Positions 680-44,473 of a stretch of 64,000 nt of DNA are shown here, piece after piece (within the stretch, counting starts at the first letter, position 1; each line of letters opens with the position of its first letter). This DNA is from Escherichia phage vB_EcoM_005. The notes under the pieces were generated by a model, which saw nothing but the letters and a program-made list of their open reading frames with translations, did not search any database and was not told the DNA's origin. The position numbers and the translations under genes were made by a program. The stretch lies in sequence record MK295203; one strand, given 5' to 3'.

Positions 680-1339
680 ATGAATTATTTAATTTACAAA
701 ATAACCAATCTCATTAATAACAAGATTTATGTTGGAGCCCATGCCACTACAGATGTTAACGATTCTTATATGGGTTCTGGGGTTAACATAGTAAAATCCA
801 TAAAGAAGCACGGTTTAGAGAATTTTAAAAAGGAAATCCTTTTCAATTTCGAAACACCTGAAGAGATGTATGCTAAGGAAGCCGAACTAGTTGATGAGGC
901 TTTTGTCATGAGAACAGATACTTATAATGCTGCCTTAGGCGGTAAGGGTAATCCTGTTATAGTAGCTTTACAGGAACCCGGGTATCGTGAGATGTTATCC
1001 GAAAAGACCAAGGCCGGTATGACCAAGGAAGTAAGGGCCAAAATGTCTAAATCGAAAACAGGTTCTAAAGAATCCAAAGAGCACCGAGAAAACAAATCTA
1101 TAGCTAATAAAAAGTTTTACGAGAATAGGGATTCTCATCTTAAAGGTAGGAAACTATCAGAAGAACATAAAGCCAAAATTAGAAAGAATTCTAATAAAGG
1201 TAAGAAATTCGTATTTGTGGATATTTCTATTAAAGGTCATGAATTTAGCCATTACGATTACGCTGCCGAATTCTTTAACGTATCCGCAAAAACTATAAGA
1301 AATTGGATTAATGAACGCGATGATTGTTTTAAGCTATAG
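680..1339 (+). CDS. GIY-YIG homing endonuclease (seg-like)
   Basis: YLIYKITNLINNKIYVGAH and YMGSG motifs near N-terminus, basic repeats and HTH-like C-terminus; sits between genes 23 and 24 where T4 has segD. Confidence 0.8.
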   Translation: MNYLIYKITNLINNKIYVGAHATTDVNDSYMGSGVNIVKSIKKHGLENFKKEILFNFETPEEMYAKEAELVDEAFVMRTDTYNAALGGKGNPVIVALQEPGYREMLSEKTKAGMTKEVRAKMSKSKTGSKESKEHRENKSIANKKFYENRDSHLKGRKLSEEHKAKIRKNSNKGKKFVFVDISIKGHEFSHYDYAAEFFNVSAKTIRNWINERDDCFKL

Positions 1340-1398: not shown

Positions 1399-2825
1399 TT
1401 AAATTCCCTTAACGTAGACACGTCTAAAGTAACCATTCAGACCGAGGCTGTTAACGATGTCAGGCATACCGCTCTGAATACGTTTGGTAGGAGCCTGTGC
1501 AGACGGGTCAGCGAACGGGTTGATACTGTGAAGTAATCGGAACGTGCATACTGGTCGATGTAAACGCGATATTTACCACCAAGAACACCGGCAAATACTG
1601 CTTTGGTTGTGTCAACGTTGAAACCCTGACCCAGACCTTGAGCTGCATAACTTACAGAAGTATCAACTGCAGCCAGTACGTTAACTACGTTACGGGAAGC
1701 GATGATGAAGTTACCAGCACCACGACCGGTCTGACGAGCGATTTCGGCTGCTTCTTTATCAATCTGGAACAGAAGGGCTTTAAAGCTCTCACCGGCCCAA
1801 CGAGCACCACGGATATCAATCGGGTCCTGGAAGTCAAACACACCAGCTTTAGCGCCAACGGTGTTGGTCATACCAGATTTACCAACCTGTGCAGAGTAGT
1901 TAATCCAATCGATAACTTCACGGTTGATTTCGAGCATAATTTCGGTAGCAAGGATACCGGACAGTTCAGCATCTGCATCCATACCGTGTACTGCACGAAG
2001 GTCCTGTGCCAGTTCGATAGAATAGCTTGCTTTCAGCTGACGGGATTTAGCTTCGATAACTTGTTTGTCGATGCGGAAGCCCATTTCGTTCCACGGGTTA
2101 TCCTGGGAACCGTTAAAGCCTTCCTGAAGTTCAGCGATAGAAGTAGCCATACCTTCAGCCAATTCAGCCAACTTACCAGCTTCAATCAAAGCGGTAACAG
2201 CAGCATCCAGTTTAGCGGCATCAGTAGCAGCAGCATCAACGGTTACAGCTTCAACAGCCTGGAAGTGTGCAGCACCGGTAGCTTCGAAGAAGTGAGAATA
2301 AATTTTACCAACTTCCAGAACTTTGCTTGCAGCCAGTGCTTCGAAAGATTCAGCAGCACCCTGACCAGAGAACATAGCGTTCGGAGCATACATCGGGTGG
2401 AAAGCTTCTTTAGCGCCAGCAGCGATAGGGTCTTTACCATAAACTGCGCGCAGGGCAAATACCTGGCCGGTAGGGTTATTCAGAGGCTGAACACCACAAA
2501 TATCAAAAGCAATCAGATGAGGAATAGCACGACGAACCATACCCATTACTGCAGGCCCAATCTGAGTTACAGCACCAGAAGTCTGGCCAGCTGCGATATT
2601 GGTAGCATCATAACCGTGGTCACCGCCAATTTCAGCTTCGGTCAGGAAAGAACCAAATGCTTCAGAGATTTTTTCATCACGGTATTCCGGAGCAGTCAGG
2701 ATGTCTTGTTCCTGGTTTTCGAAAATTTTAGCGATGATAGCTTGTTTAGAAGCACCTACGATTTCAGGAAGAGCTTCGTTTTCCAGCAGAGCGGACCATT
2801 TTTGAACTAATGCATTCTTTTTCAT
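1399..2825 (-). CDS. 23: major capsid protein gp23 (reading frame broken near 3' end)
   Basis: MKKNALVQKW...SKQAIIAKIFENQ... close to T4 gp23; frame changes after DYFTV near 1545; last 41 codons (INPFA...FRRVYVKGI) are in another frame ending 1399; ORF track shows 1437..2825. Confidence 0.9.
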
Positions 2826-2846: not shown

Positions 2847-3563
2847 TTAAGAAATTCGTGATGCTGCGATTGCAGACAGGTCCGCGAAGGACAGGGTAGG
2901 CTTAGCGCCTTTTTCTTCAACTGCTTCTGAAATGTAATTCAGTGCCGCAGCATCGTCTACATTTTTATTTATAGCGGCTTCGGTGATTGGGTTTTCAACG
3001 TCAGTTTCAGTCAGGTCTTTAGTTGCTTCCGTAACAGCAACTTCACGCTGTACGTAATTAATATACGCGTCGCGCTTACCAACTTCTTCGAACAGACGAG
3101 CGGTTTCATCTTTCTGCTCTTGGAGTTCTTCTTCCATTTCAGCAACAACATCTACTGCTTCTTCTGGAACAACCACATTGTGTTCAACAAACAGTTCTTT
3201 CATACCCATCAACATGGATTCGAACAGTTCGGCTTTAATACCTTTATCAACAGCCAGCTGGTTTTCAGCCATCCATTCTTTAGCAACGTGGTCAAGGAAA
3301 CGACCGGCAGCTTCTTGGATTTTCTTATCGGCTTTTTCTTCAGCTTCTTCTTTATTTTTCTCTACTTCTTCTTCCGCTTTTTCAGCGATTTTAGCGATGT
3401 GAGATTCAGCCAGTTTCACGGCGTGTTGCTTGACGGTAGCTTCGAATACAGTGCCGAAAGTTTCTTTTGCTTCCGGAGAAATATTAACTGATTCGAAAAT
3501 ACTATCAAGAGCAACGGAAGCATCAATATTCTGTGCTTCGGCGATCAGTTGTTCTTTAAGCAT
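2847..3563 (-). CDS. 22: prohead scaffold protein gp22
   Basis: 238-aa acidic coiled-coil protein MLKEQLIAEAQ...; position between 21 and 23. Confidence 0.85.
   Translation of the reverse strand: MLKEQLIAEAQNIDASVALDSIFESVNISPEAKETFGTVFEATVKQHAVKLAESHIAKIAEKAEEEVEKNKEEAEEKADKKIQEAAGRFLDHVAKEWMAENQLAVDKGIKAELFESMLMGMKELFVEHNVVVPEEAVDVVAEMEEELQEQKDETARLFEEVGKRDAYINYVQREVAVTEATKDLTETDVENPITEAAINKNVDDAAALNYISEAVEEKGAKPTLSFADLSAIAASRIS
2966..2973 (-). promoter_or_regulatory. possible late promoter TATAAATA
   Basis: Forward TATTTATA = minus-strand TATAAATA, about 140 nt upstream of gene 23 start. Confidence 0.3.
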
Positions 3564-3590
3564 TTTGTAGTCCTGTTGTTTAGATAATAA

Positions 3591-3598
3591 TATTTATA
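3591..3598 (-). promoter_or_regulatory. late promoter TATAAATA for gene 22
   Basis: Minus-strand TATAAATA 28 nt upstream of gene 22 ATG, overlapping gene 21 stop. Confidence 0.5.
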
Positions 3599-4229
3599 AC
3601 GCTTTTTTCATGGCCTCTGCGAGAGCCATAAAGGCGTCATCGGCACTGGTATCGGTTTCTACCGTTTGTGATTCTGTAATTTGCTTTGGAGTTACATAAG
3701 CATCAGGAGCAGATGGTCCCCATACTGCATCAACACCGACGGTTAATTTATAACCTTCGTTTACACGCTTATATCCTTTGTTGGTTTCGGTTAAAGAACC
3801 AAGACCACGAGAACTAACACCAGGAACCCAACCAGCACGGATATTTGCAGCTAGTTTATCACCTGGGCCATGGTCACCTTCGATGATACGTGCACGTCCA
3901 TAAACATCATTACCTTTCCACCACATATCTTCAATAATAATAGCGGCTTGCATAGGGTCAACGTTAGCACGAGGTGGGTGGTTTAATTCTCCTAAAGCTT
4001 GTTTAGTAGCAACCTGTTCCGCCATATAATCGGCAACGGCTTTTTCCAAAATAGGTTTTGGGTAAAGGCGTTTATTACGGTTAACTACCTCTGCTTGCAT
4101 GAAAATGCCTTCTATATAAAGGCCGGGAGCAAGCCCAGAATTTTTTCCATCATGAGATTCCAACATAGGAACCCCATCGATAATTTCACCTGGTTGTCCC
4201 CAATGTTCGATGAGCAATTCAGGTTTCAT
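3594..4229 (-). CDS. 21: prohead protease gp21
   Basis: 211 aa; ...GEIIDGVPMLESHDGK...GLYIEGIFMQAEVVNRNKRLYP... near-identical to T4 gp21 as recalled. Confidence 0.9.
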   Translation of the reverse strand: MKPELLIEHWGQPGEIIDGVPMLESHDGKNSGLAPGLYIEGIFMQAEVVNRNKRLYPKPILEKAVADYMAEQVATKQALGELNHPPRANVDPMQAAIIIEDMWWKGNDVYGRARIIEGDHGPGDKLAANIRAGWVPGVSSRGLGSLTETNKGYKRVNEGYKLTVGVDAVWGPSAPDAYVTPKQITESQTVETDTSADDAFMALAEAMKKAL

Positions 4230-4657
4230 TAGTTAAGTCCAAAAGCTTTACGTTTAGAACGGGCTTTCTTACGCTTACGTTCAGCACGCACTTGAGTAGA
4301 TGGATTAGCACGTTTGGTTTTAGATGCTTTACGAGCAATCTGACGGCGTTTTGCTTTAGATAAACCTGTCGTTTGGAACGCATTACGTTGACGGGTTTTA
4401 ATATCTTTAGTACGAGTAAGCTCACCTTTAGAGGAAACGTGTTTAACGATAAATTCGTTAAGAGCCATTGATTCATTTAAAGAACCAAGAGCGATAGCAC
4501 ATTCGATATCGCCTTCAGCAATCATGTTCTCTACAAGATTATTTATATCGCTTTTCTCGAGCGCTTCAGAAAGAGCAGCAAAACGTCCCTGTGCTTCTGG
4601 AATTTTAGCCTCTACGCTTTCTAGAGTTAATTCGTAATCATCAGGGATAAGGAACAT
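4229..4657 (-). CDS. 68: prohead core protein gp68
   Basis: 142 aa with very basic C-terminus; ATGA overlap with gene 21; T4 order 67-68-21. Confidence 0.8.
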
Positions 4658-4926
4658 TATTCGTCGTCCTCGTCTTCGTCTTTATCATCACCTTCATCCG
4701 CATCGTCAGATTCTTTTTTGTCTTTCTTATCTGCTTTATCGGATTTTTTGTCATCTTCGTCTTCGTCATCTTTGTCGGCTTCTTCGCCTTCAATCATAAC
4801 GGAGCGAGCAATTTCTGCTTTACGGGCTTCAATCAAAGCGGCTACTCGAGATTCGATAAGCGGGCCTGCTGCTTTACGAACTGCTACGAGGTCGTTTGAT
4901 TTAATAGCTTCGATTAAATCTTCCAT
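4657..4926 (-). CDS. 67: prohead core protein gp67
   Basis: 89 aa with highly acidic C-terminal tail (DEDEDD...); between portal and gp68. Confidence 0.8.
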
Positions 4927-6500
4927 TAGAAATCCTCTTCTTCTTCATCTGGGTTTTGGAAACGAGCCTCTTTAGACTCTTCTTCAATTTGCTTAGCTTC
5001 TTGATTAATTTCTTCGTCAGTCATTTGGAGGAAATCTTTCATAGCCGTTTGATGTGAAATGTACTTACCAATAAATGGTTCAGCCATCGTTAGCATATTG
5101 ATTCTGCGTTCCATGATTTCAGCATCTTTCATTTCACTGAAATAGCTATCACGGTTAAACGTAACTTTAATATTATTTATTTCCTTTTCCCACTCATCTT
5201 CTGTAATAATCTTTTTAAGAATGAGGTTTGTTTTTAACGGGTCTAGGAAAATTTCTTCAAATTTGTTTTGTAACTGACGAATCCATTTAGAGAATTTTAA
5301 TTCGTCACGAGTGATTGCTGTACCGGCATCAAACATAACACCAGAATTGGACTCGCTAGGGATACGTGATTCAGGAACACGCAGCGCACGATAAAGTGCT
5401 GTGCGGAAATAAAGAACGTCGTCCATATCACTCATACCAGTAGCGCCTGGCATTGTATCAACTTCTGTAACCGCTTTACCATCACGACGTTGCAACCAAT
5501 AGTCTTCAGTCATGGACATATTGTGTTGTTGGTTTTTAATTTTACCTGTCGAAGCATCATACACCACACGGTTTTTCATCGTGTTCATGATATGTTGCAT
5601 TTGTGCTGCAGCCTTACGTGAAGGCATATTACCTGTATCGATATAAAACACACGACGGTCAGGAGCACGTGTAATACGGTAGATGACCATTGCGTCTTCC
5701 ATCAATTTAAGCTGGTTTGCAGGCTTAATAGCACGTTGCAAATAGCCAATGATGTTTTTACCACAACAATCTAATAATCCAGAATGAGCATAAACCACTG
5801 CAGCACGAGGAATTTTAACTTTAGTCCCGGCTGAATAAATGCGTCCATCAGCGCAATAACTTTCATGGCCTGTATCATAAACGAAAAACTCGCGATATCC
5901 GTCTACAACTTTAACGCCATCTTCCATACGTGTAACGATTTCACGAATATATTGGACTTGGCGTGGGTCTAAGCGACGAAGCTCTTGTACGCCATCTTTC
6001 ATTTTTTTAGGGTTTATAATTTTATGAAAGAAAATTCTTGAGTCTACATACCAGCGTTGGAAATGGTCAGTACCTTTACGTTGGAAATTTAAAAGGTTTA
6101 AAACTTCACTGAATTCGGCCAAGATTTTATCTTTAATTGCTTGACTAAATTCTGTCCCGTCTAAATTCAATGCAACTACTTCTTTATCATCCTCATAGAC
6201 AATAGCGTCAGACACAATTTCCTGTACGGCGTTGTCGACTTCATAGTTGTTCATTAAATTACGGTAGGTATCAATAAGTTCCCTGGTATTTTTAACTTCA
6301 GGCTCATTACTACCAAACATCTGTTGCATAAGAGCATTATAAGGAATATTTTGCTCTTGTGTCTCAATTTCGCGAGCGCCATCATCAAGCTTAGGTGCGG
6401 TGACAGACTCTAAATTGTTATTAATTTGTTGTTTATATTCTTTTTCGTCTTCATTAGCCCATGGCTTAAGAAAACTTAATATTGTATTAAAGTTTGCCAT
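4926..6500 (-). CDS. 20: portal vertex protein gp20
   Basis: 524 aa, same length as T4 gp20; position upstream of 67/68/21. Confidence 0.9.
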
Positions 6501-6548
6501 TAGAGTCTCCGATGAATGGGATAAGGAGCCGAAGCTCCTTGATAATTC

Positions 6549-6556
6549 TATTTATA
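6549..6556 (-). promoter_or_regulatory. late promoter TATAAATA for gene 20
   Basis: Minus-strand TATAAATA about 49 nt upstream of gene 20 ATG; small hairpin GGAGCCGAAGCTCC lies between. Confidence 0.45.
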
Positions 6557-6557
6557 C

Positions 6558-7139
6558 TCATTCATTTTCATGTTTGTGATAACGTGTTATAGCCGAACGA
6601 GTTGATTCAACACCACAGATAGGGCAAATCATCCTTGGCTGATTAATCTTTTTGCCTTTAGCCGGATGTTCTTTACCAAACATCGGATTACCTTCACCAG
6701 ACATAGCTTTGGCTTGGTCTGGTCGCTTACGTCCTTTTAGAGCTTTAGAATGTTCAGGCCTCTTTTTACCTAACCTACAATCTCTTTGTAGCTGTTTGGC
6801 ATGTTCACTCATTGGAATCCCTTTACGAGACATTCCAAAGAACCCGTCAGGCTGAGCTAATGACATATTTATATAGTTTTTAGATTTAACTACATTATAC
6901 TTTATTTGAAGCTCTTTCTCAGCTATACGAGCTTCTTTATCGGTTTCAAATAAAGATAAAATTCTGGTTTTGAAAAGGTGCGGATTTTCTTTACGTTCTA
7001 GATTCCAAATCTTTTTATATGCTTGGGATAATACAGAACCATTATATCCTTCTTTGAGAATCCTTTCAACGTATGTTGAGCCAATATAACGACGGGGTAG
7101 TTTAGACCCCGTGTATATGGTTAAGTAAGTACAATACAT
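6558..7139 (-). CDS. GIY-YIG homing endonuclease with C-terminal zinc finger
   Basis: TIYTGSKLPRRYIGSTY N-terminal motifs, repeated basic H-x-AK segments, C-terminal CPICG...H; free-standing between genes 20 and 19. Confidence 0.7.
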   Translation of the reverse strand: MYCTYLTIYTGSKLPRRYIGSTYVERILKEGYNGSVLSQAYKKIWNLERKENPHLFKTRILSLFETDKEARIAEKELQIKYNVVKSKNYINMSLAQPDGFFGMSRKGIPMSEHAKQLQRDCRLGKKRPEHSKALKGRKRPDQAKAMSGEGNPMFGKEHPAKGKKINQPRMICPICGVESTRSAITRYHKHENE

Positions 7140-7169
7140 TCTAAACTCCTTGACTTCATTGTTTGAATG

Positions 7170-7177
7170 TATTTATA
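7170..7177 (-). promoter_or_regulatory. late promoter TATAAATA for HEG 6558..7139
   Basis: Minus-strand TATAAATA about 30 nt upstream of the HEG ATG. Confidence 0.4.
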
Positions 7178-7206
7178 CTATCATAATTTGCTATAAAAGT
7201 AAAAAC

Positions 7207-7698
7207 TTATTCCCACCAGTCAATAGCAAATGTGCTTTCAAATGTTTCTACCTCGTTATTCGAGTCCCAGTCCATCTGGACTTCACCAACGTTAGTAGGC
7301 CATAAGCCGTAAATTGTAACTTCTTTGGTCACAGTCTTGCCGTCACGATGGAACTGGCGAACTACTGCTTGTTTCTTATATTCTGCAGGTGCTGCACCGG
7401 TAATTTCATTGGTCATACCGTGACAGAGATTCTGCCAATCGACAATTGCTTGACGGGTGTCATGTGCATCATCGTTATAAATGGTAATTGTCCAATCATC
7501 AAACGTACGGTCACCAGCTACGTTAATTTTACGGTTCATGTAGCCAACCGGTACTTTTTCTACAATGCCTGCCGGCATAGGTGCTGCTTTACATTTAAAG
7601 CTAAAGTTTTTACCCAGAAATGGAATTTCCACTTCGAAAAGGTTAGGGCGTGCAAAGTCACCTGACTCGAAGGCCCTAGTGATATCCGTAAGTTCCAT
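7207..7698 (-). CDS. 19: tail tube protein gp19
   Basis: 163 aa; ...ITRAFESGDFARPNLFEVEI...GLWPTNVGE... matches T4 gp19 as recalled. Confidence 0.9.
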   Translation of the reverse strand: MELTDITRAFESGDFARPNLFEVEIPFLGKNFSFKCKAAPMPAGIVEKVPVGYMNRKINVAGDRTFDDWTITIYNDDAHDTRQAIVDWQNLCHGMTNEITGAAPAEYKKQAVVRQFHRDGKTVTKEVTIYGLWPTNVGEVQMDWDSNNEVETFESTFAIDWWE

Positions 7699-7701
7699 AA
7701 G

Positions 7702-8385
7702 TTAGTGTTTCCTATCATATTCTTCAATTAAATGGAATAGCATATCTAAATCTATACTATTTTTAGAATCTTTACTTCGATTCTTTTCCCAAGGAATCAT
7801 TTCTAGATTGCAAATGTGTCCTATTATTTCGGGAGGGACGCCATTTTCAAATCCATATTTGATAGATACCCTATGGTCTAATTGATAAGCTCCTTTAACA
7901 CCACATATCCCGCTTAGATGTCTATTTGGTAGATTATCAACTTCTTCTTTAAAAGTCTTATTAGTAAAAGACCTCACTGAATAATAATATTTATTACGTT
8001 CAGATTTGTTAGGATTCCATCTTCCGTTTTTAGGTCCTGAACAAGCTTCAATCTTTATACCTTTTTTAGACTTAGAAATTTTAGGCCCTTTGGTTTTACG
8101 GATTTTTATGCCTTCATCAGAATTCCAATATTCTTTTCTTGTTTCTGAATAGACTTCCCAACGATGCTCTTTACAGAACTTAGAATTGGTTTCATTAAGT
8201 CGCCCTTTTGTTACAGTATAATAAATGCCACATTTATCACATTTACACGTAACAGCCATTTTTCCAGGACAGTCTTCTAATTTTATTAAATGGGAGCTTC
8301 CACTTTTAACTTGATATCCAAGATTTTTAAAAGCAGAAACATTGCGATTCGTTATAGGTATTTCAAATAGAGTATTAGTAATCAT
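7702..8385 (-). CDS. HNH homing endonuclease (mob-like)
   Basis: C-terminal YQLDHRVSIKYGFENG...HICNLEMIPWEKNRSKD HNH motif, cysteine-rich N-terminus; inserted between genes 19 and 18. Confidence 0.7.
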   Translation of the reverse strand: MITNTLFEIPITNRNVSAFKNLGYQVKSGSSHLIKLEDCPGKMAVTCKCDKCGIYYTVTKGRLNETNSKFCKEHRWEVYSETRKEYWNSDEGIKIRKTKGPKISKSKKGIKIEACSGPKNGRWNPNKSERNKYYYSVRSFTNKTFKEEVDNLPNRHLSGICGVKGAYQLDHRVSIKYGFENGVPPEIIGHICNLEMIPWEKNRSKDSKNSIDLDMLFHLIEEYDRKH

Positions 8386-8407
8386 ACTTATATTTATATA
8401 CCAGAAA

Positions 8408-8436
8408 GTCGCAGGATTGCGCCTGCGACGTTTTTA
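8408..8436. terminator. terminator-like hairpin in 18/19 intergenic region
   Basis: GTCGCAGG-ATTGCG-CCTGCGAC hairpin followed by GTTTTTA; strand assignment ambiguous. Confidence 0.35.
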
Positions 8437-8566
8437 GTTATACAGTTGATAAATCATATTCCTAAAGAATAATCAATCCCAGGCTCAATTCTACGTGATG
8501 TACGCTGTAACCAAACTCATGGTATAATGGTTTTAGGTTCTTTATATTACAGCCTGGGATAATAGA

Positions 8567-10402
8567 TTATACTAACGGTCCAATCAATTCATCAAAATCA
8601 GCACCAGTGCTCGTTGCAACGAAGTTCAACGTGATGTAGTTAATAGAACGAGCAGGTTTAACGTAGATATTAGCAATAAACTCATTACGGTCGATAACCG
8701 CAGGGGTGTTCACTGTAGTATCACAAACCACACGTCCTTCATAAATCCCACCAAGTGCCTTAATACCATCTAAGTACTGAGAAACTTCCATACGGAAGCT
8801 TGAACGGGTGAAGTTATCGTTCAATTCAAACAGTTTATATTTAGAGGCATCACCGATATTTTTCTTAAGCATGTTGAACAGACGGCGAACGTTAATATGG
8901 TCCATCGGAGATGGAACTTTAGTTGCAGTCTTATCACCAAACAATACGAAACCATCACCACCAGCAAAACCAACAACTGGGTTAATAGCTTCCTGGTACA
9001 TGCGGTCACGTTGGGATTGACGAGGTTCAATTGCCAATTTCAGAACGTTAAGAATCTGGCCACGGTTATAACCAGCCGGAGACATCCAAGGCTGAGACAC
9101 ATCATCCGTACGGGCACACAAACCAGCCATATCAGCCGCTAACGGAACCCAACGATTAACGTCGTTATATTTGTCATACTGATATTTATAGTTGCCGTCA
9201 ATTGCAGCATAAGTGGTGCTAATGTTCATGTTGTTGGTATCAAACAATGCTGCACCGGTACGCCAGTCGATAAGGTTATCTACTGCACGAGTCAATGGAA
9301 CGTTAACCAACAGACCTTTAGGAGGAGAAATAAATGCCAAGCAATCCTGACGTTCATCAGCAATGCTCACAACATGTTTCTGGACGGTCGAAGCAACTTC
9401 GTCACCTTCACCGTAGTTCAGCGAGGTAGCGAAGATATAGTTCGAAGTACCTTTAGCGAAATAGTCATCAAGATAAATGTTATTACCGTAAACGTCTTTT
9501 TCGCCTTCTTTGGTAGAAAGTACGACGGATTCTACGATTGCACCGTCACGGCGAACAATAATAGCATATTGGTCTTCTGTTTGAGGACCGTAGTTGAATA
9601 CTGCTTTAGCTACAGAAGCACGAGTACCGCCATTTGGATAAATATCCAACATTTTATTAGAACCAGCATCATAAGCCGCTTTAGAAACAATTTCAACTTC
9701 CAGAGTACTACCAATTTCACCAGGATAAAGGGCGACCACACCAGGCATACCAAACTGTTTAAGAGATGCTTGGAATTCCAGGGAAGTAATAGCTTCTTCA
9801 CTGTTCTCTGCTTCAGTCAACAGAATACCGGAATCGGTTACAATTTTACCGACAGTAATAGTACCAGAAACACCGGAAGAGGCAGAAGTAACTTCAGCAG
9901 TCCACGCCGGGCCGAGGTTCGGATATTGGTTAACAGAACGAGCATAAGAAATAATCTTGCCTGTAGGAATAAACACCGATAGAATTTTACCGTCTGTATC
10001 GACCGAAGTTACACGACCTTCAGATTCGATTACAGTTTGGTTATATTTGATATTAATTTTATCGCCTACCGCATAGTTAGAACCTGCAGTAGTAATAGTG
10101 GTTTGGACGTTACCTGCTATCGGAGATGCGTTTTTAGCGAATTCACGGTTAACAACACGAACAGTACGAAGGTCATTACCGTACTGGAGGAAGTTCATAC
10201 CCGACATGAAGTAATCGGCAACTTCGTTATTAGGACCTCCAAATAAGTCAACCAGTTCAACTTCATTAGTAATCTGAGTTACCTGGAAAGCAGGGCCCCA
10301 CTGGAATTTACCAACCAGCGCTGCACGACCCGTTGCGTTACGAACGACAGTACTCTGTACGGACGTTTCTTTGAGCTCAATGCCCGGTGATAATAAAGCC
10401 AT
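8567..10402 (-). CDS. 18: tail sheath protein gp18
   Basis: MALLSPGIELKETSVQSTVV...ARSINYITLNFVATSTGADFDEL; 611 aa versus about 659 in T4 as recalled. Confidence 0.9.
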   Translation of the reverse strand: MALLSPGIELKETSVQSTVVRNATGRAALVGKFQWGPAFQVTQITNEVELVDLFGGPNNEVADYFMSGMNFLQYGNDLRTVRVVNREFAKNASPIAGNVQTTITTAGSNYAVGDKINIKYNQTVIESEGRVTSVDTDGKILSVFIPTGKIISYARSVNQYPNLGPAWTAEVTSASSGVSGTITVGKIVTDSGILLTEAENSEEAITSLEFQASLKQFGMPGVVALYPGEIGSTLEVEIVSKAAYDAGSNKMLDIYPNGGTRASVAKAVFNYGPQTEDQYAIIVRRDGAIVESVVLSTKEGEKDVYGNNIYLDDYFAKGTSNYIFATSLNYGEGDEVASTVQKHVVSIADERQDCLAFISPPKGLLVNVPLTRAVDNLIDWRTGAALFDTNNMNISTTYAAIDGNYKYQYDKYNDVNRWVPLAADMAGLCARTDDVSQPWMSPAGYNRGQILNVLKLAIEPRQSQRDRMYQEAINPVVGFAGGDGFVLFGDKTATKVPSPMDHINVRRLFNMLKKNIGDASKYKLFELNDNFTRSSFRMEVSQYLDGIKALGGIYEGRVVCDTTVNTPAVIDRNEFIANIYVKPARSINYITLNFVATSTGADFDELIGPLV

Positions 10403-10431
10403 TTTGAATCCTCTTGGTTATGCTTTATTGT

Positions 10432-12741
<2,310 letters not shown>

Positions 12742-12745
<4 letters not shown>

Positions 12746-13608
12746 GGGTTTCTCCTTGGTGCTGGAGGCGCTGGCTCGACAGGCACTGGAATATCTTGTG
12801 AATATGTTTGAACGGAACTTCCATCCCATTCTGTTTGTTCTACACCTCTCGGAACCACTTCGCTATCAACCGATTCGAAATTACCTTCAGGAGCGAGTTC
12901 CTTTGAGTTAGCAAAGAAATCAAGATAAATGGTTTTAATTTCGCCTTCCATTTCTTTAACTGGAGGATATAACCACCCGTTAACCTCAAACATCATGGAC
13001 CATTCTAAACGACGACGAGAAGTGGTATCGCCTTCTAATTGTTCGTCCATTGCAATAGACTGGAACACAATACGAATATCACGGTCAAATTTAATCTCGT
13101 TTGTATAGAGTTCAGTGATTGTTGTATTAAAGTGAGGTTGGAAATAAGGCATAATCTGTTCCACAATTTGGAACATATCATCTTGGGTTCTAGTGTAAAT
13201 ACCCAGTTCGAAAATCATTTTAACCGGAGTAGGAGAATATTGGCTAACCCGTTTACGAGGGTCACCATTCTCAAATTGAATTTGTGTTCTGTTCTGAAGA
13301 GCTGTTTTGTATTGTGAGTTATAAAGCATATCAACCATTTGAAGGTTCATACGTGGAAGAACTGTTTCCACTTTAGCCTTTTGTTCAGCTCGTTCTTTAG
13401 GAGACGTATTGGGATTTGGAATATTCTGTACTGCCGTCCATTTGCCCAAATTTGCCATAAATCTTTCTTTAGAAGCATACGTGATAGGAACCTTAATAAA
13501 TTTAAGCCCTGTATCTTCTCTTTGACGTGCTACTTGAACATGGGAAAATAAATCACCCATCAAAACAATATAGCGACGTAGCGAACTATTATAAAAGTGA
13601 CCGAACAT
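12742..13608 (-). CDS. 15: tail sheath stabilizer/terminator protein gp15
   Basis: [13 protein letters not shown]...VPITYASKE... matches T4 gp15 N-terminus as recalled; 288 aa. Confidence 0.85.
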
Positions 13609-14195
13609 TACTCACCTCTCATTTTACAATTATCATTATGCCAACGATTTATAAGATGGTATCCTATCATCTTGTGGCAATGTGGACACTCTACTTTTCT
13701 CTTTGGTACACCTGTTTGGGCTTGTCCAAAGGATACGGTATGTTCTGCTGAAAGCTTTTTGCCTTTGTGGGTTTCACTGGCTCTCTTTTTAGCATACTCT
13801 CCGTGATGTTTACCAAAAAATGGATTCAATTCACCTATACGAGTTTTACCCCAGGCTGATTTAACCCTCTTCATTTCTATACGGGCTTCTTCGTATTTTA
13901 TTTTTAATTCTTCTTCGGATAAATTTAAATTTCTACGTTCAGAACTACTAAACATAATCCAAAAGGCTAAAATCATTTTAGGGTCTTTTGTTTTTGCTAA
14001 GATTGCATGCGCCTCTAGATGGTCTAAAACATCTATAGAAACTATATTTTCCGGCGTGTTTTCGTATTCTGGAAATAAAGACCTAGGGAGAATATGATGT
14101 TTTTCGGTGTATTCTGTTTTAGGTGGCTTGGAGACCACCGCCAGATATTCATCTGTCAAATCCCCAAGCCATAATCCTACTTTTTCTTCTATCAT
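13608..14195 (-). CDS. HNH homing endonuclease
   Basis: HHILPRSLFPEYENTPENIVSIDVLDHLEAH HNH motif and C-terminal CPHCH...C zinc finger; inserted between genes 15 and 14. Confidence 0.7.
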   Translation of the reverse strand: MIEEKVGLWLGDLTDEYLAVVSKPPKTEYTEKHHILPRSLFPEYENTPENIVSIDVLDHLEAHAILAKTKDPKMILAFWIMFSSSERRNLNLSEEELKIKYEEARIEMKRVKSAWGKTRIGELNPFFGKHHGEYAKKRASETHKGKKLSAEHTVSFGQAQTGVPKRKVECPHCHKMIGYHLINRWHNDNCKMRGE

Positions 14196-14204
14196 AGAAG
14201 TTAT

Positions 14205-14908
14205 TTAATCATCTAAAAAAGCATCATCAAATGCTGTAGGAGGAGCATCTTCTCCTCGTCCATTAATTACAACATAAGGATGTACGAATTCAGCCGCTTC
14301 GGCATTAATCTCATTGACCTCTTCGTATTGAATGTCGGAGATATCAGCCAACCCGTCGATATTCTTAACAGGCATTAAATCAAGCTCACTGAATTCAGGA
14401 ATATTAATACCTTCATTTCTCTGTAATTCAGGACGAAGTTCTTCACCATTGTAAATGAACTTGGTAGCGGTAATTCGACGCTGGACGTTAGCACCTACTT
14501 GATAGAATGGGTCGTAAGGTTGTACCCAGTTAATTTCGAATAGGCTTATTATCCATTGGGAAATAAATCAAGTCGCCTGAAACAGGTTCAGTGCCATTGC
14601 ATTGATGTTTAAAAAGGTTAGGGTTAATTGTGATTGTTACTTCATCATTAACCATCATACCGAACTTACTGAAAGCCTATTCGGTCATTGGCATTTAACA
14701 TATTCACGTGGTATATAATAAAGCTCAATACCACGCATTTGAATAGACTCAGCAACTAAAGCATCAGCCAATGTTTGGGTATTCTCATGCTTGTAATGGT
14801 CGCCATTGGGTCATTGACAAAGGGATTGAGAATTTCGGCTTCGTTCGTATTAGCGTAACCTGTATTATTTTCTAGTTTGGCGAAAAGACTAGAATCAAAT
14901 GTCGACAT
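14205..14908 (-). CDS. 14: neck protein gp14 (multiple frameshifts; not translatable as one ORF)
   Basis: gp14-like segments lie in three frames: [23 protein letters not shown]..., [64 protein letters not shown]...; span of 704 nt is not a multiple of 3. Confidence 0.7.
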
Positions 14909-15521
14909 AACTCCACTCCTTCCATTTAGGTTTATCATTCTTTATTCTATTAATAACTGCGCTTTTGACTATACCAAAATACTCGGCGCATTCTTTACCT
15001 GTCGAGAATACCATTTCTCCGACTCTAACTGCTCTGGCCGCAGGATTTTTACTACCGGTAAAATCTGGGTGTTTCACACGCGTCCACATTAATGCGGTAG
15101 ATTCTTTTCTACGCTTTAGCCCTTCTTCAGTCCATTCTCTTGATTTTGCCGCCTCTGACATTCTTTTTCTTGATTCTATAGAACGGGTTTTACCTATATT
15201 AGGGTTATCTTTAGGATTGTAATAAGAAGGACCACCTTGTCCTCCTTTTACCAAATTAACACACTGAGCAAAATCTTCTTTAAGAATATCGACTAAAAGT
15301 TCTTCGGCTTCCTTTAATAATTCCGGATTACCGAAATCTTTCGACCATAATACCTGTTTTATACAGTTTCGTCCATATTTTTTCTTAGCATTCGAAATAT
15401 ACGTTCCTGAGCCAACGTATGAATCCAGCTTTGGATTAGATTTATCCGAATGTCTTTTACCGCCATAAATTTTTAATCCGTCCGACGTTTCAAACTCAGT
15501 CACGTATAATCTATAAAACAT
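14895..15521 (-). CDS. GIY-YIG homing endonuclease inserted between genes 13 and 14
   Basis: [10 protein letters not shown]...YVGSG motifs, C-terminal HTH; 3' end overlaps gene 14 start; ORF track fuses it to an upstream gene-14 fragment (14895..15668). Confidence 0.75.
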
Positions 15522-15568
15522 AATTATCCAATTAAAATAGGTGTTGGTGGGTCGAGTAAATCTAATTC
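15519..15568. repeat. 50-bp direct repeat, copy 1 (copy of gene 13 3' end)
   Basis: Identical 50-mer CATAATTATCCAATTAAAATAGGTGTTGGTGGGTCGAGTAAATCTAATTC also at 15666-15715. Confidence 0.85.
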
Positions 15569-15572
15569 GAAA

Positions 15573-15668
15573 GTTGACGAAAGGGTTCATTATTTCAGTT
15601 TCGTTCGTGTTAGCATAGCCAGTATTATCTTCTAGCTTAGCGAATAAACTCGAATCGAAAGTAGCCAT
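15573..15668 (-). other. duplicated, diverged 5' fragment of gene 14 (32 codons)
   Basis: [32 protein letters not shown], about 78% nt identical to the real gene 14 start at 14908; reads in frame into the HEG. Confidence 0.6.
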
Positions 15669-15715
15669 AATTATCCAATTAAAATAGGTGTTGGTGGGTC
15701 GAGTAAATCTAATTC
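15666..15715. repeat. 50-bp direct repeat, copy 2 (3' end of gene 13)
   Basis: Identical to 15519-15568; encodes gp13 C-terminus ...[14 protein letters not shown]. Confidence 0.85.
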
Positions 15716-16839
15716 CTCGCGAAGTCGTTCTTTTTCTAAACGAGCTTCTTCAATCAATCGAATAGCCATCTACAGTGGTTCCACCTGCAAGTTGCATGCC
15801 TTGGTGTTTGGCTAAAATATTACCATTGACCTCTTTAACCAGTGCCGTAGCATAATCTTTAACCCAACGGTTATTATATGCACCAGTCTTGAAGACCAAG
15901 GTCCTCACCTACACGCATACCAGAAATACGACGTGATGGATTATCCCAAACAGCTCCAGGGCTCCATTCATTTTCGTCACACCCACCAGAGGCATATCCA
16001 TATCCTGCAGTATTTCCTACCATAGAATCAACCCCATTAAAAGAGCGAGTATAAACTTCAATTACAATAAAATCACCTTTAACAAAGTTACCCATTACCT
16101 TCAACTGTTCAGTGGCATCGTTATACCAATAATCAGGCAACAAAATATTACCATTGACTTCTTTAACCAATGCCGTCGCATAATCTTTGACCCAACGGTT
16201 ATTATATGAACCATCTTGCAAACCAAGGTCTTCACCTGCCCTCATACCTGAAATACGACGAGCCGGGTTATCCCAAATAGCTCCGGGGCTCCATTCATTT
16301 TCGTCACACCCACCAGAGGCATATCCATATCCTGCAGTATTTCCTACCATAGAATCAACCCCATTAAAAGTGGAACCAAAAGGTCTTGCATCATAGAACG
16401 ATATTGCATTAATTGTGTAAAATAACCAAGGTCGGCACCGAAGGCATTAGGCCCAAAGCTGTTACAAGAAGGTTCCAAGACCACCATTAATACCGGCCAA
16501 GCCTAATACAAAATCAGTAAACCATGGATAAGTCGCTTGGCCATCCATAGATGTTAAAGAACCCACGTTGGTTCTCAAAATTTGTGTTACCGCAAATATA
16601 TTACGGCCTTTAAGGTCAAATACACCGTTACGGAATTTTTCTTCGTCATCATGGCCTATATAAAAAGCCTGATAACCTTTGTTATAGCCGTTATAATGAT
16701 ACTCACCGTAGAGCTCCAGTGCGCGCTGGATGCAATCGTATACTTGGTCTGTAGTTACTTCAATATTTGTAATCGGTGCACCCAGGCGGCGCAGGATTGC
16801 GTCCTTGAGTTGCTTAGGGTTATATGATTCACTTGCCAT
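15671..16839 (-). CDS. 13: neck protein gp13 (frameshifts and internal tandem duplication)
   Basis: [23 protein letters not shown]... matches T4 gp13; frame breaks near 16465 and 15760; 1169-nt span is not a multiple of 3. Confidence 0.75.
15814..16043. repeat. tandem duplication inside gene 13, copy A (about 230 bp)
   Basis: About 90% identical to 16142-16370; both encode [43 protein letters not shown]. Confidence 0.8.
16142..16370. repeat. tandem duplication inside gene 13, copy B
   Basis: See copy A; separated from it by a 98-bp unique segment encoding [19 protein letters not shown]... Confidence 0.8.
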
Positions 16840-16860
16840 GGTTTATTCCTCTAATAACCG

Positions 16861-16868
16861 TATTTATA
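16861..16868 (-). promoter_or_regulatory. late promoter TATAAATA for gene 13
   Basis: Minus-strand TATAAATA about 20 nt upstream of gene 13 ATG. Confidence 0.5.
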
Positions 16869-16870
16869 GC

Positions 16871-16892
16871 AAAAAAGGGCCGAAGCCCTTTT
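16871..16892 (-). terminator. rho-independent terminator after wac
   Basis: Minus-strand AAAAGGGCTTCGGCCCTTTTTT immediately downstream of the wac stop. Confidence 0.6.
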
Positions 16893-16893
16893 A

Positions 16894-19107
16894 TTATGGT
16901 GTTGGGGTTAAAGTCACAAAATCTGACAATAATACCCATGCATTATCAACAAGAACATACGGAAGTCCATCAGCAACTGGAGCCGCTGGCGGACGTTTAC
17001 CAAGTTCAGTTTCTAGTGCAGTGATTTTAGCTTCGGCTGCAGTTAAACGAGTAGTTAATCCTGCCACTTTACCTGATTCAACTTCAACAACACCTAAACG
17101 GGTATCAATAGCCGCTACTTTATCGGATTCACCCTTAACTTCAGCCAATCCAGATTTAAGTGTTACTATATCACCTTCTGCAGTGCCAAGGCGGGTATTA
17201 ATACCTGCTACCTTATCAGATTCGACTTTAACAGCGGCAAGTCCTGTTTCTAAAGTGGTGATTTTACCTTCTGCTGTAGTAACTCTAGTTGTTAAAGGAG
17301 CAATTTTGGCAGTATCAACTTTAATTGCGTTAATTTCACCTTCAGTAGAAGAAACTCGGCCAGTTAAAGAAACGATATCGCCTTTGTTCTTGGTGATATC
17401 CGCTTTAATAGGGGTCAACTGGTTTTCTAAATCGGTTACATCTAAAGCCAGTGCAGTAACATCGTCATCAGTAGTATCTGTCTTAGTTTCAAGAGCAGCA
17501 ATTTTACCGTTAATGGTTACATCACTAGATTCAAGTGCTGTTAAACGACCGTCCTGTTCAACGTCTTTAGCCTTTATAGTAACGATATCTGCTTTAATCT
17601 CACCAACCGAAGTGTTTAATGCACCGGTACGAGTATCAAGAGAAGAAATTGAGGTATCATTATCATCGACTCTAGAAGTTAAAGCGGCCACTTTACCGTT
17701 GGTAACAACCAAATCAGCCTTAACAGATTCTATTTCCGTAGAGCTATTGAGAACCTCTGTCCAAGTAGCATTGCGGCGTGCATAAAGCTTACCATCGGAA
17801 GGGGCATCATTCAACTTACCTAACATCTGGGTTTCTAAAGAAGTAACCGCGTTAATAAGACCACGTTCTTCTACAGTAGTACCGTTAGGGTTGGTCCCGT
17901 CAACCTTATTGGTGAGTTTAAGTAAAGTACCCTTAATACCGGATTGGTTATTTCCAATTTCTACTTGAATATCCTGGATAGATGAAGTAGATTGGTTTGC
18001 TTGGATAATAACGTCATTTAAACGCTTATTAATGGTCCCAGCTGCCGGAGATACTTCACTACCTAAACGGCGGTTGATATCAGTAACTTGGAAACGTAAG
18101 CCATCACTTGAACTAACACCCACTATGGTTTTAAGGTCATTTACATCGGTGCGAAGACCGCTTAAACGTCCATTAATAGAAGTAGGAGTTGATTCAGAAC
18201 CTATTTGGATTTCAATTGATGTTACACGAGGTTTTAAATCAACGTTGACTGAATTTTCTAGGGTAAGAGTTTTGCTTTCTAAAGTAGTTACTCGGTCCTT
18301 TATAGGCATACCGGAGAAATCAATATTGGTCTTAATTTCGTCGATAGACGTATTAAAATTAATTGCCGCCGTTTCTAATGCTGAAATTCGGGTATAAGCA
18401 GGTTGTTTACCTACCGTATCAGAATGCGGGCCAAGTTCAGCACGAATTTCATTTAATTTAATACCTAATTGCCCGACGTCAGAATCTTCATAATTCCTTT
18501 CAAGGGTATCAATGCGAAGACGATGGTCGACCAATTCAGTGGTATTATCAATGATGCGACGTTTCATACCGGTGGCTTCGCTGGTTTCACCTGGAGGCAA
18601 TGGATTGCCATTTATATCCTGGTTTTCATAATGACCTATTTCGGTTTTAAGAAGAACAATATTTTCACGTACAGTTAAATATGGGCCATCTTGTAAAGGG
18701 TCATGGTAACCAACGTCTTCACGCAAGTAATCAAAATTGGTGGTTAACTCATCCAATTTTCCTGTTGTTTCTGAAGTAACCTTTTTAAGGTCTACGATAT
18801 CAACACGGTTTTTCTCAATTTGTTGGATGACGGAAATATCCGTAGCCATTTCTAAGGCATCATTGATATTATTAACGTTTTCTACCAGTTCGTTAACTTT
18901 ATCTGCGGTTTTCAAATCATTCGCATCAAGAGCTTCAACGTTTTTCTGAACTCCTAAAGCAGCAGCGTTCAAATTACCTTCATTGCCGTATTTTGTTTTT
19001 GCTGCAGACATACAATCACCCTCGCGTATCCATTGGATACGCTTTTGAGGAGCATCAGGTACGCCGTCAACAAATGGTAACTCACTAAGTTCCAATTTGT
19101 TAATCAT
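16894..19107 (-). CDS. wac: fibritin (whisker antigen control) with extended coiled coil
   Basis: MINKLELSELPFVDGVPDAPQ... N-terminus like T4 wac, long repetitive coiled-coil segments; 737 aa versus 487 in T4 as recalled. Confidence 0.85.
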   Translation of the reverse strand: MINKLELSELPFVDGVPDAPQKRIQWIREGDCMSAAKTKYGNEGNLNAAALGVQKNVEALDANDLKTADKVNELVENVNNINDALEMATDISVIQQIEKNRVDIVDLKKVTSETTGKLDELTTNFDYLREDVGYHDPLQDGPYLTVRENIVLLKTEIGHYENQDINGNPLPPGETSEATGMKRRIIDNTTELVDHRLRIDTLERNYEDSDVGQLGIKLNEIRAELGPHSDTVGKQPAYTRISALETAAINFNTSIDEIKTNIDFSGMPIKDRVTTLESKTLTLENSVNVDLKPRVTSIEIQIGSESTPTSINGRLSGLRTDVNDLKTIVGVSSSDGLRFQVTDINRRLGSEVSPAAGTINKRLNDVIIQANQSTSSIQDIQVEIGNNQSGIKGTLLKLTNKVDGTNPNGTTVEERGLINAVTSLETQMLGKLNDAPSDGKLYARRNATWTEVLNSSTEIESVKADLVVTNGKVAALTSRVDDNDTSISSLDTRTGALNTSVGEIKADIVTIKAKDVEQDGRLTALESSDVTINGKIAALETKTDTTDDDVTALALDVTDLENQLTPIKADITKNKGDIVSLTGRVSSTEGEINAIKVDTAKIAPLTTRVTTAEGKITTLETGLAAVKVESDKVAGINTRLGTAEGDIVTLKSGLAEVKGESDKVAAIDTRLGVVEVESGKVAGLTTRLTAAEAKITALETELGKRPPAAPVADGLPYVLVDNAWVLLSDFVTLTPTP

Positions 19108-24445: not shown

Positions 24446-24503
24446 TAATTTTTACCTGAGGGGCAAAGGTCACAGCACTTTGGTCAAACAAAATGCGCAT
24501 AGA

Positions 24504-34729: not shown

Positions 34730-35422
<693 letters not shown>

Positions 35423-35428
35423 AAAGTT

Positions 35429-35468
35429 GTTTACAAGGTCTATAGGCATGATACTATAGACCTATCAA
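35429..35468 (+). promoter_or_regulatory. early promoter cassette (PeSL-like)
   Basis: GTTTAC, spacer AAGGTCTATAGGCA, TGATACTATAGACCTATCAA; spacer AGGTCTATAG pairs with CTATAGACCT. Confidence 0.6.
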
Positions 35469-35494
35469 AACAAACTAACCAAACGGAAATCAAA

Positions 35495-35719
35495 ATGAAA
35501 ACTTATCAAGAATTTATTACCGAAGCTAAAAGACATGAAGATGAACTGCCAATTGTTACAAAAACCTTTGATGGCACACTGGCTGATTTTAAAAAAGTCC
35601 CTAGTGATAAGCTTGCTAAATTGACTGGCTCTATCAATGAAAAAGGTGGCAAGGTCACGTTTTCTGCTGGCGGCATAGCCAATCTTAAAAAACTTTTGAA
35701 AGCCGCTGGCGCTGAATAA
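35495..35719 (+). CDS. internal protein with capsid-targeting leader (ipI position)
   Basis: Starts MKTYQEFITEA; 74 aa; located after 57B where T4 has ipI. Confidence 0.7.
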   Translation: MKTYQEFITEAKRHEDELPIVTKTFDGTLADFKKVPSDKLAKLTGSINEKGGKVTFSAGGIANLKKLLKAAGAE

Positions 35720-35993: not shown

Positions 35994-35995
35994 TT

Positions 35996-36038
35996 GTTTA
36001 CAACGGGCTCTAGTGGTGATACTATAGCCCTATCAAAA
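35996..36038 (+). promoter_or_regulatory. early promoter cassette (PeSL-like)
   Basis: GTTTAC...TGATACTATAGCCCTATCAAAACAA followed by GGAGAATAAAATG leader. Confidence 0.55.
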
Positions 36039-36061
36039 CAAATGAGTGATTGGAGAATAAA

Positions 36062-36247
36062 ATGAAACGTTGCGAATTAATTAGAAATGTTACTGCACTG
36101 GCCGCCGTTACTGCTTTTGGCTTTAGTATGTTTGCAGGATTCATGCTCGATATGCTTTCAACTTCCGAGAATATAATCTCTTTAGTAGTGGCATTTTTAA
36201 TTGGTTCAATCTCTTTTGTTATGGATAAAATCTCTAAAGGTGAGTAA
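36062..36247 (+). CDS. small hydrophobic (membrane) protein
   Basis: ATG after GGAG leader; two hydrophobic stretches; track start 36050 is TTG. Confidence 0.5.
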   Translation: MKRCELIRNVTALAAVTAFGFSMFAGFMLDMLSTSENIISLVVAFLIGSISFVMDKISKGE

Positions 36248-37315: not shown

Positions 37316-37389
37316 GGCCCTGTAGCTCAATGGTTAGCAGCAGTCCCCTCATAAGGGAAAGGTTACCGGTTCAAATCCGGTCTGGGTCA
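37316..37389 (+). tRNA. tRNA, anticodon CAU (Ile or Met)
   Basis: Hand-folded cloverleaf: acceptor GGCCCTG/CTGGGTC, anticodon loop CTCATAA, T-arm ACCGG-TTCAAAT-CCGGT; no encoded CCA. Confidence 0.6.
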
Positions 37390-37397
37390 TTAACTAC

Positions 37398-38945: not shown

Positions 38946-38967
38946 CAACAGAGTGAAGGAGAGTAAA

Positions 38968-44468: not shown

Positions 44469-44473
44469 AAGTT

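Follow-up and report, generated by a model that had tools for sequence, protein, structure and literature searches.

Does the late region of a T4-type phage hold a high density of free-standing homing endonuclease genes, and do these genes share one genome? We addressed this for a 64,000-nucleotide (nt) stretch of Escherichia phage vB_EcoM_005 (sequence record MK295203), called here the window, in which an earlier note, made from the sequence alone, had pointed to GIY-YIG genes at 680, 6558 and 14895 and HNH genes at 7702 and 13608 between essential late genes, and to a further GIY-YIG gene at 63258 and an AP2 protein at 43818. All seven open reading frames (ORFs) are present and are homing-endonuclease-like, the start of one of them, ORF208, having been corrected (Table 1). 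The most probable reading, to which we assign a probability of about 0.8, is that the five late-region genes are free-standing homing endonuclease genes, accompanied by two more in the early region, and that they were spread by homing.

Positions 4900-16500 of the window match Dhakavirus genomes (JS98-like T4-type coliphages) with 95-97% identity in a megablast search, the closest being IME540 with a query coverage of 89%; by these matches, the window belongs to a Dhakavirus. The five late-region genes sit in the gaps 24/23, 20/19, 19/18, 15/14 and 14/13 between essential genes, and the tail tube gene gp19 is bracketed by two of them, ORF193 and ORF227.

Table 1. Coordinates of the endonuclease genes, their neighbours and other features of the window
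Feature	Position	Strand	Remarks
segD orthologue ORF219, GIY-YIG	680-1339	+	between ORF93 (gene 24 side) and gene 23, antisense to late genes
gp23	1437-2825	-	name transferred from relatives
gp20 (portal)	4926-6500	-	name transferred from relatives
gp20 late promoter motif	6549-6556	-	intact right after ORF193 stop, identical to endonuclease-free junction of MX01
ORF193, GIY-YIG, Seg-type	6558-7139	-	between gp19 and gp20
T4-type late promoter motif TATAAATA of ORF193	7170-7177	-	30 nt upstream of ATG at 7139
gp19 (tail tube)	7207-7698	-	492 nt; Pfam Phage_T4_gp19
ORF227, family of VR7 'gp19.1' and T6ORF160	7702-8385	-	between gp18 and gp19
Late promoter motif TATAAATA of ORF227	8391-8398	-	5 nt upstream of ATG; replaces gp19 promoter of endonuclease-free relatives
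GC-rich hairpin, terminator-like, weak T tail	8408-8429	-	5' edge of ORF227 cassette; absent from MX01 junction
gp18 (tail sheath)	8567-10402	-	name transferred from relatives
gp15	12742-13608	-	name transferred from relatives
ORF195, Mob-type HNH	13608-14195	-	between gp14 and gp15
ORF208, GIY-YIG, Seg-type	14895-15521	-	208 amino acids; between gp13 and gp14
Junction anomaly	15519-15715	-	endonuclease-free allele, second 50-nt gp13 end, then endonuclease-bearing allele
351-amino-acid ORF	16730-17785	+	antisense within wac
157-amino-acid ORF	37775-38248	+	phrog_2280 (unknown function)
ORF216, AP2-domain protein	43818-44468	+	early region; family annotated HNH endonuclease
SegE-like GIY-YIG gene	63258-64000	+	cut by window end; Pfam, PHROGs
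Deletions	1527, 3005, 9414, 16370, 19202, 19464, 20591, 21018, 23299, 23985, 24461-24504, 27276, 27472		
Deletions, further	30240, 31004, 31230, 43521, 45143, 47049, 51928, 54139, 56610, 59012, 60544, 61884, 62454		
Empty sites of four extra IME540 genes	31383, 37327-37392, 51267-51359, 52924		
Early-region repeat copies	35408-35504, 35994-36068, 38924-38970, 44452-44548		
Early-region repeat copies, further	47492-47544, 48117-48169, 50754-50806, 58559-58611		

Endonuclease families in the window

The gene at 680 belongs to phrog_314, 'homing endonuclease' (E=3e-54, PHROGs), and exceeds the NCBIfam TIGR01453 cut-off (57.8 bits vs 56.05). Its product shares 57% of the amino acids with T4 SegD and 96% with SegD of other Tequatroviruses, it occupies the same 23/24 gap in the same antisense orientation as T4 segD, its Dhakavirus copy in IME08 is annotated SegD, and the cassette with its flanks has ~93% nucleotide identity to Tequatrovirus phages; on this similarity and position, the gene is an orthologue of segD. 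ORF193 and ORF208 fall into the same protein family (E=1e-29 and E=9e-33, respectively). ORF193 is 100% identical in Bp7 and QL01 and is also present in IME540; ORF208 is 100% identical to ORF161 of MX01 and has 61% identity to the genes that many Tequatroviruses carry at this site, and it narrowly passes the Pfam cut-off for NUMOD3 (20.8 bits vs 20.4) and falls just short of that for the I-TevI DNA-binding domain (24.1 bits). The gene at 63258 reaches 118.7 bits with Pfam SegE_GIY-YIG (PF19835; cut-off 25, E=2e-34) and belongs to phrog_7363, 'homing endonuclease' (E=2e-127). Among the seven ORFs, only this gene and the one at 680 pass a curated cut-off for a whole domain (Pfam or NCBIfam). 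In an alignment of five sequences (ORF193, ORF219, ORF208, the 63258 gene and T4 SegD), the Tyr of GIY, the Tyr-x-Gly of YIG, the Y.GS columns, a Glu (E74 in ORF193) and an Asn (N91) are invariant in all five, and an invariant Arg column was not recovered. The four GIY-YIG assignments of the earlier note are thereby borne out, by the family matches and by catalytic columns shared with T4 SegD. None of ten early-region ORFs of 150-200 amino acids checked against PHROGs proved to be a further endonuclease gene.

The frame beginning at 14895 had been listed as an ORF of 257 amino acids (14895-15668), which turned out to be too long. Its true start is at 15521 and not at 15668: the longer frame is a read-through of the duplicated 5' end of gp14 and the duplicated 3' end of gp13, its first 49 residues being the gp14 N-terminus followed by a read-through of duplicated gp13 sequence, and it was listed because the gp13/gp14 junction sequence is duplicated.

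ORF195 belongs to phrog_655, 'homing endonuclease' (E=7e-39). It is 99.5% identical to a 'mob-like endonuclease' of KIT01 and to its counterpart in ABTNLsp5 and 71-82% identical to genes annotated as Mob-like or MobE in Klebsiella and Yersinia phages; over all genes with such annotations the identity ranges from 51 to 82%. Its N-terminal HNH motif and MobE-like similarity mark it as a Mob-type HNH endonuclease, in agreement with the HNH gene seen before at 13608. ORF216 belongs to phrog_374, 'HNH endonuclease' (E=1e-61), its best phage match is 68% identical, and its C-terminus is recognisably AP2-like, so that the AP2 protein reported at 43818 was also recovered; the gene lies on an insertion of 655-658 nt relative to IME540 and MX01, both of which lack it. 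At the place expected for the catalytic motif ORF216 reads ...SINRIG..., where HNH-AP2 relatives usually bear a His-containing motif. The gene is directly followed by a copy (44452-44548) of a repeat family of the early region.

The assignment of ORF227 is less direct. In the protein, a beta-rich N-terminal region containing a Cys cluster is joined by a basic linker to an HNH-like (His-Me finger) nuclease domain at the C-terminus. PHROGs gave only phrog_5104, 'unknown function', a profile search of the whole protein and of the C-terminal domain against PDB sequences found nothing relevant, and Foldseek matches to PDB were not significant. Eighteen homologues were collected and fourteen were aligned with the window protein. 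Two of 15 relatives reach PF13395 HNH_4, with the best E=9.5e-4. The 15 family members, 32-72% identical to ORF227, share the invariant residues C49, D170, H171, G178, N181, G189, H190, N193, L194, N202 and K205 and the pattern ...YQLDH(K/R)xS...GFxN...GHIxNLxxIPWxxNxxK, which, as read from the alignment, is the D-H / N / N arrangement of HNN-type His-Me fingers. AlphaFold2 modelling was confident, with predicted local distance difference test (pLDDT) scores of 85.6 (whole protein) and 94.6 (residues 126-227); in the models, D170-H171 are placed at the end of a strand, a second strand spans 194-198, and N202 is in the next helix; the best structural neighbours of the model are dominated by HNH/His-Me-finger nucleases, with low Z. 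ORF227 is probably an HNH endonuclease with an unusual domain order, an assignment that is based on the motif and the low-Z fold similarity and not on a curated profile. The HNH gene proposed at 7702 is therefore upheld at the level of motif and of low-Z fold similarity, and a curated profile match is missing. Taken over all seven genes, the outcome that the earlier note had named as contrary to its proposal, a failure of domain searches to support GIY-YIG or HNH folds, did not occur.

Distribution, insertion junctions and flanking divergence

The region from gene 24 to gene 10 was surveyed at the five late-region sites in nine Dhakaviruses and T4 (Table 2). The ten comparison genomes contain from none to two of the five genes and the window contains all five, its set being the exact union of the endonuclease genes found across these genomes. 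The sporadic distribution is seen across genomes with flanks of ~96-100% identity. Such presence/absence polymorphism at fixed intergenic sites, combined with the precise junctions described below, is the pattern by which mobile elements are recognised.

Table 2. Endonuclease genes at the five late-region sites in the window, nine Dhakaviruses and T4 (+, present; -, absent)
Genome	24/23 (segD)	20/19 (ORF193)	19/18 (ORF227)	15/14 (ORF195)	14/13 (ORF208)	Remarks
Window	+	+	+	+	+	
IME540	-	+	+	-	-	
Bp7	-	+	+	-	-	ORF227 allele 64%
QL01	-	+	+	-	-	ORF227 allele 34%
PSD9	-	-	+	-	-	ORF227 allele 34%
MX01	-	-	-	-	+	
KIT01	-	-	-	+	-	
ABTNLsp5	-	-	-	+	-	
IME08	+	-	-	-	-	
JS98	-	-	-	-	-	
T4	+	-	-	-	-	

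For each of the late-region genes, a deposited phage carries a counterpart of 96-100% identity, the nearest matches being in different phages (IME540/Bp7/QL01, KIT01, MX01 and IME08/Tequatrovirus), and relatives of ORF193, ORF195 and ORF208 were found by tblastn in 173, 273 and 215 records, respectively. Metagenome and Logan contigs (L017-L020) encode an ORF227 identical to that of the window, followed by gp19 and then directly by gp20 with no ORF193, and hence the two genes bracketing gp19 move independently. IME540 carries, in the same stretch, four endonuclease genes whose sites are unoccupied in the window (Table 1): a Seg-like gene between 53 and 5, a gene on the tRNA side (record 115033-115698), one near regB and one next to tk. 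The endonuclease content of the two genomes thus differs at nearly every occupied site, and with these four the overall density is similar, seven genes in the window against six in IME540. The statement that the sites differ from those of T4 holds for four of the five late-region sites, as the T4 gaps 13/14, 14/15, 18/19 and 19/20 hold no gene; the fifth does not differ, because the gene at 680 is segD at 23/24.

Compared with the empty sites of MX01, the cassette junctions are precise. The ORF193 cassette is inserted exactly between the last sense codon and the TGA of gp19; it brings a new TAA for gp19, the TATAAATA motif, an AAGGAG Shine-Dalgarno sequence and the ORF, whose stop is the old gp19 TGA, and it leaves the gp20 leader hairpin untouched. 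The ORF227 cassette replaces 62 nt of MX01 sequence comprising the gp19 late promoter and leader. ORF227 ends 3 nt before the gp19 ATG, its cassette carries the only late promoter ahead of gp19, and the gp19 ribosome-binding region lies within the 3' end of ORF227. The usual spacing of T4 late starts would place the late transcript starts of ORF227 near its ATG, giving an almost leaderless message, with gp19 still served by the same promoter. The spacer between gp18 and ORF227 (200 nt, 8370-8570, minus strand) has a stable predicted RNA fold (-50.9 kcal/mol, z = -4.1), in which part of the ORF227 start region is base-paired; endonuclease-free MX01 shares the large outer stem. ORF195 and ORF208 have no TATAAATA motif of their own (18 matches in the window vs 7.8 expected), and both overlap a neighbour, the stop of ORF195 overlapping the gp15 ATG by 1 nt (TAATG) and ORF208 overlapping the gp14 start by 14 nt. 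The earlier remark that several of the genes have their own late promoter or overlap neighbours was accurate, and these arrangements match those reviewed for the seg and mob genes of T4 (PMC2988022).

Divergence beside the insertions was measured as identity per 100 nt and by codon comparison. The last 40 codons of gp19 differ from those of endonuclease-free MX01 at 14 of 120 positions (11.7%), none of the differences changing an amino acid, against 14 of 369 (3.8%) in the remainder of the gene. Between endonuclease-bearing and endonuclease-free alleles of gp14, 22 of 93 positions differ in the first 31 codons, and 14 of the codon changes are synonymous. The 3' end of gp23 is 77-88% identical to segD-less relatives, compared with 98-100% deeper in the gene, and 91-92% identical to segD-bearing IME08; here only identity per 100 nt was used, since the 133-nt deletion at 1527 falls inside the compared part. 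The raised, largely synonymous divergence beside three of the five insertions is indirect evidence that would fit target-site protection or co-conversion. On the other side of the segD cassette, positions 1-400 (gene 24 side, upstream of ORF93) are 70-78% identical to IME540, Bp7, QL01, IME08 and JS98 and 94-100% identical to PSD9, KIT01 and MX01, forming a sharp mosaic boundary that adjoins the cassette.

The spread by homing would probably proceed as follows. During co-infection, the endonuclease would cut a relative free of the gene, within or close to the conserved essential gene that borders the vacant site, and recombination-dependent repair would copy the endonuclease gene together with a flanking stretch from the carrier genome, which itself would be protected by the mostly synonymous substitutions beside the insertion. 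Each cassette would be fitted into late transcription with the essential neighbour still expressed: ORF193 through its own late promoter and Shine-Dalgarno sequence, the reused gp19 stop and the spared gp20 promoter; ORF227 through a hairpin and late promoter that take the place of the gp19 promoter and leader; and ORF195 and ORF208 as promoterless genes overlapping the next gene.

Sequence damage and alternative explanations

Several observations weigh against this reading. Homing and cleavage by the seven genes we infer from the T4 Seg/Mob paradigm, and the activity of T4 SegD itself has never been shown (PMC2988022). Some profile scores are low: ORF193 has a Pfam score of 17.6 bits, under the cut-off of 25, ORF195 matches Pfam HNH with E=0.028 and ORF216 matches Pfam AP2 with E=0.025, both under threshold, and ORF227 has no match in Pfam (E up to 5) or NCBIfam. 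No raised divergence around ORF195 is seen in the per-100-nt identity. At the 3' end of gp18 (last ~40 codons, 8600-8699) identity is 75-81% to QL01, PSD9, IME08 and ABTNLsp5 and 97-99% to IME540, MX01 and JS98; this divergence does not cleanly track ORF227, as endonuclease-free IME08 and ABTNLsp5 carry the tract. The hot spot may relate to the 206-amino-acid allele found in QL01 and PSD9. Finally, the window is corrupted, and it is therefore uncertain whether one molecule carries all five genes.

Alignment with both IME540 and MX01 revealed at least 26 deletions in the window (Table 1), of which 17 remove exactly 99 nt net and the rest 97-173 nt. There is no microhomology at their junctions and often one stray base is left; two stretches are replaced by short unrelated sequence. 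Several deletions break the essential genes gp23 (133 nt), gp11 (106 nt), gp7 and gp6 by frameshifts, and gp18 is shortened by 49 codons. Around ORF208, the window contains two alleles of a 230-nt part of gp13, with 91.7% identity (15814-16043 and 16142-16370), and a 50-nt copy of the gp13 end is duplicated with 100% identity (15519-15568 vs 15666-15715); at this junction the endonuclease-free allele comprises the end of gp13 plus ~98 nt from the start of gp14. In gp14, 14 nt are inserted, 105 nt are replaced by 20 nt and there is a 1-nt indel (14675-14694; 14796-14814), and both gp13 and gp14 are split into small ORFs. A biologically split gene in the style of Aeh1 nrdA/mobE was considered and rejected in view of the frameshifts, the replaced segment and the allelic duplications, and because these defects accompany about two dozen unrelated 99-nt deletions elsewhere. 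The deletions look like an artefact of assembly or processing and not like biology, the damage pattern fits mis-joined contigs from a mixed population, and the window as written cannot be a viable phage. The stretch 3006-9413, with ORF193 and ORF227, is free of defects, and positions 5900-8199 are identical to IME540 in nearly every 100-nt bin.

The most serious alternative is that the genes are real and their density is an artefact, the window being a chimeric consensus of at least two co-occurring Dhakavirus strains. The deletions without microhomology, the recurrent 99-nt length and the broken essential genes are in favour of this, as are the two gp13 alleles, the tandem arrangement of both gp13/gp14 junction types and the defects of gp14, and it would also account for the different phage that is nearest to each endonuclease gene and for a window that unites what real isolates carry by none to two at a time. 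However, the defect-free stretch with ORF193 and ORF227 is continuous and 98-100% identical to IME540, which has the same pair; segD and ORF195 have clean junctions; T4-type genomes are mosaic in nature and accumulate homing endonuclease genes, of which T4 has 15 (PMC2988022); and the 99-nt deletions may stem from a processing step unrelated to strain mixing. We regard a chimera as a substantial possibility that is nevertheless rather doubtful. What can be retained of the high density claimed before is that five genes are packed into the late block; as a property of one genome it is not secure, given the deletions and the tandem alleles.

It is unlikely that the genes, or some of them, are remnants, decayed or domesticated, kept for the promoters or translation signals of an essential neighbour embedded in them. 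Embedded promoters are known to favour retention and T4 segD has no demonstrated activity (PMC2988022), the promoter and ribosome-binding region of gp19 are supplied by ORF227, ORF195 and ORF208 each run into the start of the gene that follows, and the INRIG sequence of ORF216 would agree with decay. Yet the ORFs, all intact and full-length with conserved catalytic columns, are near-identical to copies in other phages, and the sharp presence/absence polymorphism with divergent flanks suggests recent movement. Still less probable is an ORF227 that is merely HNH-like and serves as a conserved accessory protein of the tail sheath or tube, for example a regulator or an assembly factor: T4, JS98, MX01, KIT01, IME08 and ABTNLsp5 are viable without it, and in this one gap, bordered by sequence of ~95-100% identity, alleles of 34%, 64% and 99% identity are found. 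The presence of three alleles in one gap indicates turnover and not vertical descent, and both the invariant residues, which are exactly those of HNN-type His-Me fingers, and the nuclease-dominated structural neighbours argue against an accessory role. Spread of free-standing homing endonuclease genes by homing remains the reading that we prefer for the five late-region genes.

Neighbouring features and comparison with known systems

The late genes, whose names were assigned by transfer from annotated relatives, are on the minus strand of positions 1-31975 and are followed by early genes on the plus strand. From gp23, the order is gp22, gp21, gp68, gp67 and gp20; beyond gp18, it is gp17, gp16, gp15, ORF195, the gp14 fragments, ORF208, the gp13 fragments, wac, and then gp12 down to gp53. 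The 351-amino-acid ORF antisense to wac (fibritin), whose IME540 equivalent is annotated as a hypothetical protein, is probably a by-product of repetitive coiled-coil coding sequence. The 157-amino-acid ORF of the early region lies on a 492-nt insertion absent from IME540 and MX01 and has no similarity to endonucleases. The intergenic repeats of 45-100 nt, scattered across the early region, are 84-94% identical.

Seg and Mob genes in the gaps between essential genes of T4-type phages, including their turnover, are textbook knowledge. Only one point is mildly new: the ORF227 family, whose homologues in 241 phage records (tblastn) mostly carry the label 'hypothetical', probably consists of HNH homing endonucleases associated with the sheath/tube junction. 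In T6 (between 18 and 19), Sinorhizobium phage phiM7 and a Klebsiella Jiaodavirus, its members adjoin the tail sheath gene. Going further, we tentatively propose, with a little less than even confidence, that ORF227 represents an uncharacterised clade of His-Me-finger homing endonucleases of reversed architecture, in which a zinc-finger-like, DNA-binding N-terminus precedes the nuclease; the clade would occur in several T4-type genera and also in Sinorhizobium Emdodecavirus phages and specialise in the sheath/tube junction, with at least three allelic lineages in competition for the one site in Dhakavirus, a leaderless message and a promoter driving gp19. The significance is small beyond annotation: the 241 records could be re-annotated as putative HNH homing endonucleases of the sheath/tube junction, and statements on gene content drawn from the window need to be checked against a clean assembly.

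Among known systems, the Seg and Mob genes of T4 are the closest, with segD at 23/24 in antisense orientation (PMC2988022, Table 1 therein), a site and orientation shared by ORF219. ORF193, ORF208 and the 63258 gene resemble the SegA-G family in the N-terminal GIY-YIG domain, NUMOD3-like basic repeats and C-terminal DNA-binding tail, and in the intergenic position between conserved genes; ORF193 (20/19) and ORF208 (14/13) differ from the T4 family in occupying gaps that are empty in T4 and in that their activity is predicted from sequence, and ORF193 has a zinc-finger-like CxxC...H..H tail in place of the helix-turn-helix tail of SegD. ORF195 shares with MobE and the Mob family an N-terminal HNH motif (HH...N...H), NUMOD3-like repeats, a C-terminal Cys cluster, the lack of a promoter and translational coupling to neighbours, and differs from MobE, which belongs to the nrd region, in lying between the neck gene 14 and gene 15. 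The closest known proteins to ORF227 are the HNN-type His-Me-finger enzyme I-HmuI and the small phage HNH nucleases Gme HNH (4h9d) and GVE2 HNH (5h0o).

Homing endonuclease genes have been described to cluster beside essential structural genes and to bracket them, with turnover of alleles (Barth, Dunham and Seed 2023, PMC10448857). The situation of gp19 resembles such 'HEG islands' (islands of homing endonuclease genes), being flanked on both sides by endonuclease genes of different classes, with alleles at the 19/18 site replaced between close relatives around a nearly identical cargo gene. The cargo here differs in being a single gene of 492 nt, and since ORF227 is also seen without ORF193, joint mobilisation with gp19 is not indicated.

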